Assembly (NCBI GenBank): GCA_951406725.2 | Contig: OX597826.1 | Coordinates: forward strand, 15,376,001 to 15,440,000 | DNA: 64,000 bases | Direction: 5' to 3' | Origin: Octopus vulgaris | Taxonomy: Eukaryota | In this document: piece after piece, positions 8,618 through 38,029 of the stretch | How positions within the stretch are numbered: position 1 is the stretch's first letter | Layout: each line of letters begins with the position of its first letter | Program-made: the position numbers and the translations under genes | The notes under the pieces: generated by a model | The model's database searches: none | The model's input: only the letters and a program-made list of their open reading frames with translations | What the model was told of the DNA's origin: nothing

Positions 8618-9357
8618 CTAGTTTTTAACTTCGTTTGGCCTTCTGGTTTTCCTATGGCTTGCTGCAACTGAAGCAGCTTTTAAAACACTTTCATCACTAT
8701 TACTTACATAGGAGTCTATATATACTCTAGCTAAATCCATGCAGTCTTCTGCTGCTATTAACCCTCTTCCAATTTCCTTTCTAGGTAAGTATAGTTTTGC
8801 TACTCCTTCTCTAGGGTGGAAACCTCCATTCAAAATGAATTCCTGCTCTGTAGTCTTCAGATTCTTACAAAGTAGCATGGTCAAGTGGGATACATGTTCC
8901 CTTCTAAACCATACAATGGGATGAGCCAGTCTAACAACATTAACATCAAACGAGGCATCTTTCCGGTGGCTCCCTCTCTTTTGCATGTTACTGATCCAAT
9001 TCTCAAACGACCTGAGTAACACCAGGTATAGGTTCAAAATGTATAATATTATAGTAAATAGTCTTCTCTTCTTTTTTTCATTCAGCTCTTTGGTTAAACT
9101 TTTCCCTGCCATCATTTCATCTGCATTTACACCCATATCTTTCGCGGCATATTGCAGCAGGTCTTCATCACTATTAATCAAATACTCAGCAAGCGTTCTC
9201 CTTTCGCTCATTATACAACGGTCTATACTAATTAGCCCTCTGCTACCATTCATTCTTTTCATATACAGTCTGTTTATGTTCGGTTTAGGATGTAGCGCTC
9301 TATGCAGCGTTCTCAACTTTCTCGTCCTTCTATCCAGTGTTGATATTTCCTGACCCT
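8618..9357 (-). pseudogene. R4/Dong-type non-LTR retrotransposon RT-thumb fragments
   Basis: LDRRTRKLRTLHRALHPKPNINRLYMKRMNGSRGLISI, plus a second copy of the motif FHPREGVAKLYLPRKEIGRGLIAAED. Abuts (TAA)n. Confidence 0.8.
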
Positions 9358-9365
9358 CATTATTA

Positions 9366-9440
<75 letters not shown>

Positions 9441-9477
9441 GTGTTGTTGTTATCGTTGTTGTTGTTGTTGTTCAACA

Positions 9478-9865
9478 ATTGGTAGTTTCAGGCAAATTTC
9501 TACTGCATCACCTGCTACACTTCCGTGTTTCTGGAGTGTGTGCAACATTGTGTGTTCTTCTCTGCTGTATGGAGTGTGAAAACTCCTCCTGGTATTGTAT
9601 TGTGTGAATTTCTCTTCGCTTGAGGTGTGGTACCTATTTTGGTGTATCAATCTTTGTATTCTGTATTGAGTGTGCAATTCGCTGGTTAACCGGATTGTTG
9701 GTGGAAGTTTATTTTTTTGGATAATTTCTTTATACATCGTGTCTTGTGTTTGTGGGTTTTGCTTGGGTTGTATAATGTTGTATATTTGAATTGTTAGTCA
9801 CTTGTGTAGGATGTGGGCTCTTCCAAGGAGGGCTAATTTTTGGATAGTGCGTACTGTTGTAGATA
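9478..9865 (-). mobile_element. 3' end of R4/Dong-type LINE
   Basis: Minus strand encodes IQKLALLGRAHILHK (ORF terminus) followed by a 3' UTR. A related 3' UTR occurs at ~41110-41300. Confidence 0.65.
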
Positions 9866-23404: not shown

Positions 23405-23620
23405 CTTACATACATATATATATATATATGTATATATATATGTGTGTGTGTCAGTATAAGGTGTGTTATAAGCATTTATAGAACACGTATCCTATGGAAA
23501 CTCAACAAACAATTAAAGATGGAGAAGGGAAGGTGTTAAAAGTTTTTAAAAAATTTTAATCCATGCATACGATCGTTTCGAACGGTAATATTAACATGTA
23601 AAATTCATGGAAAAAAAAAG

Positions 23621-24235
23621 AAATTCATTTTCTCTAGTAATAATTTTGGAGTAGGTTATTCTGCCACTAATAGTGTAGGTAACATTATTTCTTCTTTTAA
23701 CAAATTTAAACTGAATAAATTTAATAAAAATAAATTATATAATAATACCAATAATAAAAAAGATAATACACTAATTAACTGTACATGTAGAGATAAAACT
23801 AAATGCAAATTAAATAATAAATGTGATATTAACGATGTAGTGTATAAATGTATAGTTACATTACATGATGAGAATAATAATAATAATAATAATAACTCAA
23901 ACACGATATATATAGGGTTCACTTCCTCTAAAATGAAATTAAGAATCGCACAGCATATGCATTCATTTAAAAATAAAAACTTAATTAACTCCACTGGATT
24001 TAGCAAGTACATTTGGGGACTTAAATCCCAAAATATTAATTATAATTTATCTTGGGAAATAATTAGTAAGGCTAAATCATATAGTATAGGAGGGAATTTT
24101 TGTTATTTATGTTCAAATGAGTTTAAGGAAATTTTATTTTATAAGCATGATAATTTAGTGAATACCTGGGATGAGCACAAAATAAAATGCAGACACAAGT
24201 TACTTTACTTATATAATAAATTTTTTGATAAATAA
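23621..24235 (+). pseudogene. Penelope-like element ORF C-terminus: RT thumb end, Cys linker and GIY-YIG endonuclease (5'-truncated)
   Basis: Open frame reading KFIFSSNNFGVGYSATNSVGNIISSFN...NCTCRDKTKCKLNNKCDINDVVYKC...IYIGFTS..KLRIAQHMHSF..STGFSKYIW...CYLCSNE...KCRH. This is the typical Penelope-like endonuclease layout. It extends the track ORF 23840-24235 upstream. Confidence 0.88.
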
Positions 24236-26589
24236 TGAATATTTCTTAGCCTTAATTAGCTCCTCATTTGTTGTTTTATGTAATAGTATTCTAAATATAG
24301 CAGGTGATTTGTAATTTATTTTAGTTATTTAGGTTCTGTTTTTAATTATAGTTAGATTATATATAGTTGTTTATTTTATTACTAAATATATTTTTAATAA
24401 ATATTTAATGGTTTATTGAATTTAGAGTCTGGTAAGTTACAATCTTATTTATCTTATAATAAAGTTAAGTTTATATATTTTGTTATACTTCTGTTATAAT
24501 TTCGTTAAATTATAATTTTGTTATATTAATCTATTTGTATGTAATTTCTTTATATTTGAAATAGATTTATTTAGTTGTTTATTTAATCTACTTTATTTAA
24601 TATAGAAGTATAGATTAGTAGATTAATTATTTAGATTAAACTTAATGTTTACCTCTATTTTTGTATTGTAGTATGAATATAGACATTTATATACGTATTT
24701 ATTATATGATATATGTGGTTGTGTGTGTATGTATATATGTGTATATTTTGATGTGCGTGTATATATATGTATATACATTTATTTATGTGAGTGGATGTGT
24801 GTATATAGGTGTATGTGTATATATTGAGCATTGTATGTGTGTACATGTATGTATGTGTGTGCATATGTGTATGTGTGTATGTGTGTGTATATATGTGTGT
24901 ATATATGTATATGTATGTGTGTATGTATGTGTATATGTATATGTATGTATATGTATATATATGTATATATATATGTATATATATATGTATATGTATGTAT
25001 ATTTTTATATATTTATGTATACGTATGTATAGTTATACTGCAAATTTTGATAAGTATTCTATTGATTTGGTTATGATCACTAATTTTAGCCTATAACTAT
25101 AAGAGCATGGGGAAAGACTTTACAGTATAATGAGGGGTTACTATATAATTTTTTTTTTATATATTTATTAATCATATAAGAATTTTAGAATATATTTAAT
25201 AATTATTGGTTTTTAATCATTTAAATTATTTAATTTATTTTGTATTAAGTATTATTTATCATAGTTATTTTATTAATAAATATTATATTATAGAGAGATT
25301 TTATTCTTTATTTGTGACTTCATTCTATTTACACTGATAAACCATTAATGTTCGCATTCACAATCTCATTGATAAAGCGTATGTTCCTCACGCTTAATGA
25401 ATTCTTCAACAATTTATTCTTTTTTTGCTAATAATGTAATTCCACGAGTATTCTTATAAACGCTGTAAAGACGTTTTCCGATTCAAAATTTTAGTTCATT
25501 ACTAAACCTCGCTAAGATAAGTTTTTATTTATATTTAAGATCTTCAAATTGTAAATTTTAATATTGTATAAGTCTTTGGTGTAATAATATTTTCCTTATG
25601 TAAATATCGTTGTTTATGTAATGATCTAATTATCGTAATTTTTTATATTATTAGATATTAAATTTAAGTTTATTCGTAAGATACTACTTAGCGATATATT
25701 TGTTGTTTGATAGCAAGTATACGAGGTGTATAAAGTTAGGCTTTTGTATATACATGTTTTAATAGTATTAATTGTAGTTTTAAATTTCTTATAATTAAAT
25801 TAGATAAACTTTGATAAACTTAGATATGTTTCGACTAAAGATTGGTCCAGGCCATGTCTAATTTAATAGCATAACTTAGTTATTGTTTTTTTAAATTGAT
25901 ATTCGCAAGTTATTCCCATTGATAATTATATTTATAGTATTTATAGTATTTATTCGATACTATATTACTACGAATTGATTATTTCTATAAGTATTTTACA
26001 TAACATTTCCGAAAGTTCGTTTAAGTTTGTTTATTTGTATTTTGAAATTAGCTATTTCATCTTTAAATATGAAAAGTTAATTTATTAGGTTTTTATTATA
26101 TGTGCATATATATTTATTTATAGAGATTATTTTAGATCTTAATTATAATATTTATATACATTTATATATTTTCATTGATAATTTATATATAATAGTCATT
26201 TTTAAATATATATGTAATTAGATAAAGATTAATACCGATATTAGATTATTGGTGGTTTTCCTACTTTATAAATTAAAATTAATATTTAACATTATAGTCG
26301 ATTTTGATATAATCATAATTGTTAAGTTTTATGTTTCTAGTTTGATAATAGAGTTTATTATAAGTAAAATTATTATATTATTAATTCTCTAAAAGGGATA
26401 TAGACAGTAACTGCTCGATAACATAAGGGACTAAAGCCATCTGAATATGGCTAGGGACAGGGCAGGGTGGTGGGGGTGTTACTGTTGCATTTAGCCCCAG
26501 GCGAACATCGACGTCACCAGAAAGGCTCGACACCGTCACGGTGCCCTTAACCTGCAAAGGGAGGTAATTCCCCGATGAAACGGAAACCA

Positions 26590-26635
26590 CACACGGACCA
26601 TGGTTTCAAGGTGTATTGCCTATCATCGGCGTGTG
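26590..26635 (-). ncRNA. Type I hammerhead ribozyme, unit 1 (U4C core variant)
   Basis: Minus strand reads CACACG-CCGAUGA-U-AGG-caauaca-CCU-U-GAAA-CCAUGG-UC^CGUGUG: 6-bp helix I, short helix II, palindromic helix III (ACCAUGGU), GUC cleavage triplet. Confidence 0.75.
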
Positions 26636-26949
26636 GTAGGCCTCCGCTTCCTCGACGAATTCTCACTCTGCAGGATTTTCTTATATAGATTTTCAAGCAA
26701 AATACATTTGCTGATTTCGAAAATCTGTTCGAAAGCAATAATAATTCTCTAAAAGGGATATAGACAGTAACTGCTCGATAACATAAGGGACTAAAGCCAT
26801 CTGAATATGGCTAGGGACAGGGCAGGGTGGTGGGGGTGTTACTGTTGCATTTAGCCCCAGGCGAACATCGACGTCACCAGAAAGACTCGACACCGTCACG
26901 GTGCCCTTAACCTGCAAAGGGAGGTAATTCCCCGATGAAACGGAAACCA

Positions 26950-26995
26950 CACACGGACCATGGTTTCAAGGTGTATTGCCTATCATCGGCGTGTG
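26950..26995 (-). ncRNA. Type I hammerhead ribozyme, unit 2
   Basis: Identical to 26590-26635, offset +360. Confidence 0.75.
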
Positions 26996-27309
26996 GTAGG
27001 CCTCCGCTTCCTCGACGAATTCTCACTCTGCAGGATTTTCTTATATAGATTTTCAAGCAAAATACATTTGCTGATTTCGAAAATCTGTTCGAAAGCAATA
27101 ATAATTCTCTAAAAGGGATATAGACAGTAACTGCTCGATAACATAAGGGACTAAAGCCATCTGAATATGGCTAGGGACAGGGCAGGGTGGTGGGGGTGTT
27201 ACTGTTGCATTTAGCCCCAGGCGAACATCGACGTCACCAGAAAGGCTCGACACCGTCACGGTGCCCTTAACCTGCAAAGGGAGGTAATTCCCCGATGAAA
27301 CGGAAACCA

Positions 27310-27355
27310 CACACGGACCATGGTTTCAAGGTGTATTGCCTATCATCGGCGTGTG
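27310..27355 (-). ncRNA. Type I hammerhead ribozyme, unit 3
   Basis: Identical to 26590-26635, offset +720. Confidence 0.75.
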
Positions 27356-27691
27356 GTAGGCCTCCGCTTCCTCGACGAATTCTCACTCTGCAGGATTTTC
27401 TTATATAGATTTTCAAGCAAAATAGGCAATACACCTTGAAACCATGGTCCGTGTGTGGTTTCCGTTTCATCGGGGAATTACCTCCCTTTGCAGGTTAAGG
27501 GCACCGTGACGGTGTCGAGCCTTTCTGGTGACGTCGATGTTCGCCTGGGGCTAAATGCAACAGTAACACCCCCACCACCCTGCCCTGTCCCTAGCCATAT
27601 TCAGATGGCTTTAGTCCCTTATGTTATTATATTATTTATATCTTAAAAATATTGTTTAAATATTTCTGATTATTTTTTAGATATTTCAATT

Positions 27692-27780
27692 AACCTGAAG
27701 ATTGACTGTAACCATAACTCGAATTATTAATTGAATTTAAATTATTGTTATTCGAATTGTACAGCCATGAAACGATCGTA
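27692..27780 (+). ncRNA. Hammerhead motif with long helix II (Penelope pseudo-LTR)
   Basis: AAC-CUGAAGA-uugacugua...uacagccau-GAAAC-GAUC^GU. The core is canonical but helix I is weak. Confidence 0.6.
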
Positions 27781-27907
27781 GTGTTTTACTCTTATTAAAC
27801 TTTTAATACTTTTGATATATATTTAAAATAATATAAATTAAATTAATTTTATGTAGTGGCTTATGTTTTTCATTGTTTGATTTGCTTAATAGTGGTTTTA
27901 TCTCTAA

Positions 27908-27938
<31 letters not shown>

Positions 27939-36790: not shown

Positions 36791-38029
36791 AATACACACA
36801 TACATACATACATACAAAAATATATATATATATATATAATATACGATACAACTAAGATGATATTTATATATACATACATACACATATATACATATATATA
36901 TATACATGCATGCATACATACATACATACATACATACATACATACATGCATACATATATGTTTGTATGTGTGTTTCAATGCTACTCGCTATTACAGTATA
37001 TATCTACAGATTTTAGACACCAGGATATGTACCAGACATATATAAACTAATTTTCTTTGTGCAGACAGTAGTTACGTGGTCAGAATAACGTGTTTAACCC
37101 ATTTTGTTCCGCTATTTGCAGTCATATCACCATGGAACATTTACTCTTGATATCTCTTCACAGTCGATCATTTATCAAAGACAATGAAAAATTTATCCCA
37201 TCATTTATCTATACCACAATGGTTTAAGACACAAGGAATGCTACTAACCTAAGGAGTTTGAACACAAAACCAGCATCCTATACACACCTCAAGTCATGCC
37301 CTTGTAAAAAAGTTAAAATGCCATTATTGTATCACTTGCCATACTAAAACTAAAGGCTAGACTTTAAAAATTCCCAGCAAAATCACAAAACGAATACGAA
37401 AAAATGATTAATTAGGGGCGGAATTCAATTCATTTAACAAAATTTTCTGAACGTTGTTAGAAGCATTAACAAATTATCTGGGCCCGTAATGGGACGGAAA
37501 ACCGGCTAAGTTACACTGATTTGAATTTGGTTCATGTCGAAGTCCAAATATATGTTTAATCTAGATTAAAGTACAACGAAATCTTCCAGAAATATCTACT
37601 GGAAAGTTGTAAACGTTACTTGGGTAACTGTTTCATTCTTTGAACTGAAAGTCTTGACCAACTTGAATTCCAGTCCCAAGTTAACAGCATAAACAACAAC
37701 ATTCACTTCCCGATGGAATAGAATATAAAACAACGATCCTTCCAGGATAATTTAAACATAAAAAATGATGCAAACATCGAAACCAGCATTCACTATAAAC
37801 TCACACAAAGCCTGAACGATACTTATTGTTCACTTATTACCACCCAAAACAAATCCAAAGGAATATATCTTCTAATATATTAGAAAGAATAAGTGTTTAG
37901 AATTTTGCAACAAGACTCTGATGATTAAGACAAATGATGCTTCATGAGAAAGAAACAACAAAATTAATAGATAACGGACTAGAACTCGCCACTTATGGTA
38001 GAAGTTACATACGTTTTGAAATCAAACTG

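Follow-up and report, generated by a model that had tools for sequence, protein, structure and literature searches.

A dispersed hammerhead retrozyme of Octopus vulgaris with a Penelope-like insertion footprint, paired start sites and arms probably copied from one RNA

The window analyzed here, a stretch of 64,000 nucleotides of the Octopus vulgaris genome (contig OX597826.1), contains an insertion that, judged from its sequence, belongs to a young, dispersed retrozyme family with a unit of 360 nt. The ends of this insertion and of its relatives carry the footprint of Penelope-like elements (PLE), and it is very probable that the retrozyme-like element is moved by PLE machinery with priming paired between two start sites, A and B. 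The explanation that best accounts for the whole, held with moderate confidence, is that a PLE reverse transcriptase (RT)-endonuclease acting in trans inserted the retrozyme and that both target strands were primed on one RNA, probably a circle. The partner PLE family, the activity of the ribozyme and the circle are the parts of this explanation that we infer.

The insertion is flanked by a 13-bp target-site duplication (TSD) on the plus strand, with the left copy at 26370-26382 and the right copy at 27624-27636. The coordinates given by the initial annotation hold, and the 13-mer is a true TSD because it was single in all 19 host paralogs fetched, abutting the right flank each time (18 exact, one with one change). 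Both flanks are part of a repeat present in many copies (1,375 candidates, 40 scored), and the empty sites compared are paralogous copies of this host repeat rather than alleles of the window locus. At the base composition of the host, an exact 13-mer match is expected by chance at about 1e-6 per position pair and about 2e-4 over 121 offsets. Contigs from two other sequencing runs also pass from the left flank through the 13-mer to the right flank, and may represent paralogs rather than alleles. The inversion joint of the window insertion and its private variant were absent from four contig sets; contigs show presence only, so this absence says nothing about the window locus.

Between the two TSD copies lie two arms of opposite orientation. 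The long arm comprises 2.9 retrozyme units at 26382-27424, with the RNA sense on the minus strand, and forms a tandem array with a period of 360 (2.9 copies, 99% matches). Its 3' end is site B and its 5' end is unit position 74. Site B falls at unit position 36 in the window and usually at position 41-44, and the shift may mark the spot where the AT-rich primer end pairs best; the 3' end of the left TSD copy primed this arm with partial pairing (four of the last six nt). The stretch at the site B end of the long arm (26382-26417, minus strand) is set apart by its end geometry, following the definition in PMC8557442 and PMC11167929. The short arm, 206 nt with the RNA sense on the plus strand (27422-27627; unit positions 155-360), is 100% complementary to every unit of the array. 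It ends 3' at site A, where its last 4 nt are common to the arm and the right 13-mer. A 3-nt microhomology (ATA, 27422-27424, on neither strand in particular) joins the 5' ends of the two cDNAs. The inverted arm, the ATA overlap and the shared 4 nt had been described from the sequence beforehand and were all confirmed. The accompanying label of a 5' inversion could go to either arm, the short one ending at site A and the long one at site B.

The host of the insertion is a 5'-truncated PLE on the plus strand (23567-27912, the 5' limit being approximate) that is 90% identical to a longer copy (L161) and terminates in (TA)n. The retrozyme sits within its 3' non-coding region. An ORF from the endonuclease end of the host (23540-24235) is 66% identical to an intact ORF of 841 aa. 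Neither the host fragment nor the 841-aa ORF had a Pfam match, a viral-contig scan using the host endonuclease gave no match, and the Atlas places the 841-aa ORF near clusters with HTH_animal (31-38% of members) and GIY-YIG. The host PLE also has, at about 27695-27780 (plus strand), a putative hammerhead-like motif of its own, whose stem II is long and whose loop III is palindromic. Elsewhere in the window, a fragment at 37491-37811 (plus strand) is 37% like a PLE RT of 781 aa.

The genome searched is large (2.8 Gb) and microsatellite-rich. A 33-nt core of the retrozyme unit, corresponding to the minus-strand type I hammerhead core, had 1,305 exact genome copies, which at about three core copies per locus gives an estimate of roughly 400 loci; 33 loci were found across the initial 162 Mb of contig C1. 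Identity among copies is mostly 95-100%. The short, non-coding 360-nt unit in dispersed tandem copies is that of a non-LTR retrozyme, and the unit is identified as such because of its hammerhead, on which the initial annotation was silent. In the RNA sense, the predicted hammerhead has a GUC site and the core CCGAUGA (a U4C variant); its stem II has 3 bp above a mismatch, and its stem-loop III is palindromic. It was read directly in unit 1 (26584-26643), unit 2 (26944-27003) and unit 3 (27304-27363) of the minus strand, and the type I fold is supported, despite U4C, by covariation of unit 1 with a sister family. Cleavage of unit 1 is predicted between 26596 and 26595. The folding z-score was -4.7 for the minus strand vs. 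-1.4 for the plus strand. A TATA-like box upstream of each hammerhead (27400-27407, 27040-27047, and 26680-26687, minus strand) is similar in the sister family and may be a promoter.

The sister family (family 2) has a unit of 354 nt with a canonical core, and 239 of 340 aligned bases are identical (about 70%). Both sides changed in 6 of 16 pairs across the two families and 94.8% of cells pair, compared with 17-53% in a control with slid partners; a shuffle control overstates the significance of this covariation because its 12 rows derive from two related lineages. The sole common polymorphism of the core is at N7, a free position of the hammerhead core. U4C is a known variant, reported to have considerably lower activity in vitro (PMC3088659). 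A search of Rfam with the array and with family 2 gave no credible match, to hammerheads or otherwise. On the plus strand, a mirrored core word at 26572 hinted at a hammerhead too, but inspection by eye ruled it out, since its stem I is unpaired. A short way downstream of its hammerhead core, each unit has 7 nt complementary to that core (26572-26578 in the window, and its repeats), which could block the ribozyme through an alternative fold.

Several relatives of the unit were seen. A divergent haplotype in L108 and L112 has the core TTGA (C3U with U4) in place of CCGA. The sister family (L166-L185, e.g., L171:1199-1553) gave 2,211 first-look candidates, and A/B ends were found in the four copies with both ends seen among 13 examined. 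A third related unit (L238, G000:C18:63231950) has a different palindromic loop III, an inverted arm of 96 nt and (TA)n flanks, and its ends look A/B by eye. An array with a period of 119 (L178-L183, G000:C1:11168330-11169267) consists of the end region of family 2 and a short (TA)n run. In two presumed RNA runs, the unit is traversed by single contigs of 368 and 390 nt, the latter being self-closing. This is no evidence of expression because tandem DNA would look alike, and in assembled contigs generally a circle looks no different from tandem DNA or a multimer. No RNA run was among the sequencing runs recorded as containing the unit.

The end geometry was compared across 70 loci, 40 chosen by score (the window included) and 33 in positional order on contig C1, with three shared. 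Inverted arms were found in 57 of the 70 loci, every one with its 3' ends outward, supporting the earlier claim that both target strands were primed. The outer ends fall at site A (unit position ~345-360) or site B (~28-47, mostly 44), about 44 nt apart. The 70 loci comprise 51 inverted A/B loci (counting the partly garbled L050), L119, which was resolved as A/B, one doubtful B/B locus (L047), no A/A locus, four inverted loci with one end elsewhere, 12 direct loci (eight A, four B) and one garbled locus. Thus 52 of 53 scorable inverted loci are A/B (p = 1e-14 against an even split), and the positional sample alone gave A/B in 24 of 33. The twin priming proposed initially is not supported in its L1-type form, with a second primer at a chance internal site, since both starts are fixed and inversion is the rule (57/70 overall and 25/33 in the positional sample).

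Primed A or B ends (n = 120, counted without L114 and L119) adjoin (TA)n in 111 cases, (TAA)n in one and other sequence in eight. TSD lengths are unreadable at (TA)n sites; the three non-microsatellite sites with a clear TSD have duplications of 13, 15, and 12 bp, all longer than 4 bp. Within the family the window locus is unexceptional; its value is that the duplication can be read, the target not being a microsatellite. Arm lengths had medians of 530 and 540, with no difference between A and B and no correlation; the longest arm had 14.7 units, more than two units were present in 51 of 127 arms, and L119 totals 23 units in one insertion. Junction overlaps of at least 3 nt were found in 11 of 47 loci vs. 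about 2.4 expected. Neither an enrichment of 5' ends at the predicted ribozyme cut site (4/127, p = 0.23) nor a clustering of deletions there was detected. In two three-piece insertions (L092:892-917 and L094:795-872) the middle piece begins at unit position 179-180, 2-3 nt from the predicted cut, as if the RT had jumped onto the 3' end of a cut RNA. At L056 (1334-1487), 154 nt between two pieces resemble sequence about 340 nt downstream of the insertion, which suggests captured flanking sequence.

The two arms of an insertion also agree in sequence. Lineage-diagnostic sites agreed across arms in 97 of 98 cases, drawn from the 25 informative of 55 multi-arm loci (the variant analysis was run without L050 and L114). 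In the window, a private variant at 27465 is present in the short arm and in all three units of the long arm (4/4 copies). Variants fixed in no other sampled locus likewise run through both arms at L105 (8/8), L110 (4/4), L099, and L107, and a minor variant of L058 is also in both arms; such "private" variants may stem from unsampled uniform source arrays, as only 70 of the estimated ~400 loci were sampled. Single-unit variants, counted without L068, L094, and L098, amounted to 0.085% per base, and 4 of 76 distinct ones recur at another locus. The loci that are not uniform are L068, with one unit of a different haplotype, L057, with one discordant site, L058, which repeats a variant pair in three units, and L038 and L098, in which variants alternate. 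A figure of 8% for the chance that two molecules share a haplotype was set aside because partial coverage splits classes. Gene conversion or assembly polishing could homogenize units. Taken with these cautions, the agreement makes it likely that both arms come from one RNA molecule.

Known PLEs have inverted arms and a tail of 30-40 nt, often at one end only (PMC3846280, PMC8557442), and PMC8969392 gives the same structure. In assays with a purified PLE protein (PMC11167929), AT-rich DNA was cut, synthesis proceeded on both strands and began at two internal sites, between which the tail lies; ribozyme cleavage was dispensable, uncut RNA was the main substrate and no strand bias of the start site was observed. 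The retrozyme insertions have the same type of footprint, with a tail at one end only, an inverted 5'-truncated arm and an AT-rich or microsatellite target. This paired A/B tail footprint, together with the lack of an RT and GIY-YIG ORF in the insertion (no ORF of 150 aa lies within that of the window), bears out mobilization in trans with a Penelope-like candidate, one of the two proposed initially. Tabulated across copies, as proposed initially, inversion is found at 57 of 70 loci and readable TSDs are 12, 13, and 15 bp; the paired tail ends recur in PLE families of this genome. In the host PLE family, the two ends are about 90 nt apart and A/B was found in all five copies with both ends seen (19 examined). 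In a young family encoding a 781-aa RT with GIY-YIG, both ends were seen in 2 of 20 copies and both read as A/B; the automated call gave one A/B and one B/B, the latter reading A/B in the alignment print.

Two young PLE families with many intact ORFs, L150-L158 (838-862 aa) and L218-L237 (781 aa), both end in (TA)n, and the 781-aa family has an apparent atypical hammerhead core and an upstream coding stretch. Tail length is about 44 nt in the retrozyme vs. about 35 nt in the 781-aa family and about 90 nt in the host family. Among the PLE families surveyed, the 781-aa family comes closest in tail length and target. We take Neptune-like and Hydra-like to be the clade names for these PLE families. 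Similarity to the unit was not found in 16 host-type loci, 30 GIY-YIG loci or one full 781-aa copy, nor in the 838-862-aa family apart from a neighboring sister retrozyme in L157. One relaxed pattern gave a single third-family retrozyme and another nothing. PLE ORF fragments lie near nine of the retrozyme loci scanned, and none was established as continuous with the unit. The failure to find a PLE of similar sequence among those searched, and the differing tail lengths, weigh against the PLE reading.

In the mechanism that we propose, the source RNA would be a non-autonomous non-LTR retrozyme, with its 360-nt hammerhead unit read from the window minus strand. A PLE RT-endonuclease would act in trans. 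The sequences themselves show a staggered cut of ~12-15 bp in AT-rich DNA and extension of both target 3' ends outward-in. Synthesis began at RNA site A on one end and, on the other, at site B ~44 nt downstream, with a few bases of microhomology fine-tuning each start; the two cDNAs stopped at unrelated positions and were joined 5' to 5'. One complex with two RT sites may bind one RNA, with the consequence that A and B are each used once. The RNA would most likely be a ribozyme-cut, ligated monomer circle, and both RTs would go round it repeatedly in one direction, so that head-to-tail arms could reach any length and would have the circle's variants in common. A monomer circle copied repeatedly by two RTs accounts most simply for arm identity and length, and we lean toward a circular monomer rather than a linear multimer. 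Beyond this family, we tentatively suggest that PLE integration is obligately paired, with a two-RT complex on one RNA, two mutually exclusive starts and both DNA ends primed; on a retrozyme circle this reaction would become double rolling-circle reverse transcription of up to ~15 turns.

An uncut linear multimer, copied by the same PLE machinery from the same A/B starts with the primers on different units, is the reading closest to the model of the initial annotation and is possible, if rather unlikely. U4C weakens hammerheads (PMC3088659), uncut RNA was the main PLE substrate in vitro (PMC11167929), and an uncut transcript from a uniform, unsampled source array would also fit arm identity. 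Variant patterns are repeated in L058, L038, and L098. Gaps between arms of 30 nt or less are mildly over-represented (22 of 47 vs. 14.6 expected; p = 0.017 at one of five thresholds tried), so that some events may be twin priming along one linear stretch. However, gap distributions among the clean two-piece A/B loci, the only ones taken into the test, fit a uniform spread in both orderings of the arms (KS p = 0.28 and 0.59, n = 47). Template length is unreadable from such gaps, and the ~3.7-unit template deduced initially cannot be upheld. The skip of 73 nt deduced with it is arithmetically right for one ordering of the arms and 118 nt in the other; the two are indistinguishable because the template is periodic, and the skip is uninformative because the gaps fit a uniform spread. 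Further, L119 would need an uncut RNA of ~8.3 kb with 23 ribozymes, arrays would shrink every generation, and single-unit variants are seldom common to loci (4/76) whereas private variants fill whole loci.

It is quite improbable that each DNA end was primed on a separate RNA, or that the RT jumped between cut linear monomers. The PLE protein is predicted to be a dimer (PMC11167929), L068 is a mosaic, the internal pieces of L092 and L094 start next to the predicted cut, and arms would match anyway if one haplotype dominated the RNA of the cell. Against this, the agreement at 97 of 98 sites and the private variants crossing both arms point to one molecule, with independent molecules the pairing of one A with one B would be unexplained, deletions are unclustered at the cut site, and 5' ends are unenriched there.

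R4/Dong elements, the other machinery suggested initially, or another LINE with L1-type twin priming, are very improbable agents. R4/Dong elements have (TAA)n targets or a (TAA)n tail, and a 13-bp duplication fits R4. The window also contains a LINE-like coding fragment at 8618-9487 (minus strand), which had no Pfam match and which we take, by its motif, to be R4/Dong. The insertions themselves speak otherwise: (TA)n adjoins 111 of 120 ends and (TAA)n one, no 3' simple-repeat tail is present in the non-microsatellite targets, where TSDs are 12, 13, and 15 bp, both start sites are fixed, and the tail pattern over the two ends is a PLE hallmark (PMC8557442, PMC11167929). Local DNA slippage, fold-back repair or an assembly artefact is extremely improbable. 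Two of the 70 loci (L050 and L114) look garbled and full of deletions, possibly from poor assembly, and the window junction is taken from the assembly. Yet the 13-mer is single in the host paralogs, and dozens of unlinked loci whose junctions differ have ends of the same geometry, which upholds the original view of one retrotransposition event.

The preferred reading, PLE-driven insertion from a single and probably circular RNA, was compared with known systems. Animal non-LTR retrozymes have been described by Cervera and de la Pena (2020; PMC7229834) and in a preprint by Li et al. (2026; 10.64898/2026.07.22.740005). The octopus family resembles them in its non-coding unit (170-400 nt), which carries a single type I hammerhead, in its dispersed tandem arrays, in a GC content close to or below 50% and in duplications longer than 4 bp, and differs in its U4C core. 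Those reports propose that the intermediate is a circular RNA and the partner a PLE; in the parts compared, they mention neither inverted arms nor fixed paired ends nor private variants common to the arms. Like PLEs with an inverted pLTR and a tail, usually at one end only (PMC3846280, PMC8557442, PMC11167929), the retrozyme has an inverted 5'-truncated arm, AT-rich or microsatellite targets, variable short duplications, extension of both strands and two internal starts. Unlike them, it has no ORF, a free tandem unit of up to 23 copies per insertion and a tail of ~44 nt. The start sites differ as well: in the PLE assays described in PMC11167929 there was no strand difference, whereas A and B are mutually exclusive within a retrozyme insertion. 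With L1 twin priming and the proposed dual priming (PMC2837659), the insertions share two inverted pieces with 3' ends outward inside a TSD and short microhomology. They differ from L1 twin priming (PMC2837659) in that inversion is the majority outcome, both primers are at fixed sites, and the arms cover overlapping unit sequence and lack poly(A).

Retrozymes, the proposed circle, the idea of a PLE partner, the PLE tail and the two start sites are already in print. The literature searched contained no inverted, tail-paired retrozyme insertions, count of A/B exclusivity or cross-arm variants, on which supplements (e.g., figure S9 of PMC7229834) may bear; neither a PLE footprint on a retrozyme nor evidence of a common template turned up there, and both are apparently new. 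The enzyme moving animal retrozymes has so far been argued from co-occurrence and sequence similarity, including that of pLTRs (PMC7229834; 10.64898/2026.07.22.740005), whereas the octopus family links retrozymes to PLEs through the mechanism recorded in its insertion footprint; similarity to the PLEs examined was not detected. The origin of the tandem and inverted structures of PLEs has been named an open mechanistic question (PMC8557442). If the paired reaction is true, the inverted repeats and one-sided tail of PLEs and the tandem arrays of retrozymes would share one mechanism, and several hundred near-identical insertions would form a natural single-molecule record of it. The reading makes a sharp prediction for the existing in vitro system (PMC11167929), namely one A and one B start per insertion from a single RNA. 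If the circle is true as well, these arrays would be genomic evidence of rolling-circle reverse transcription in an animal.
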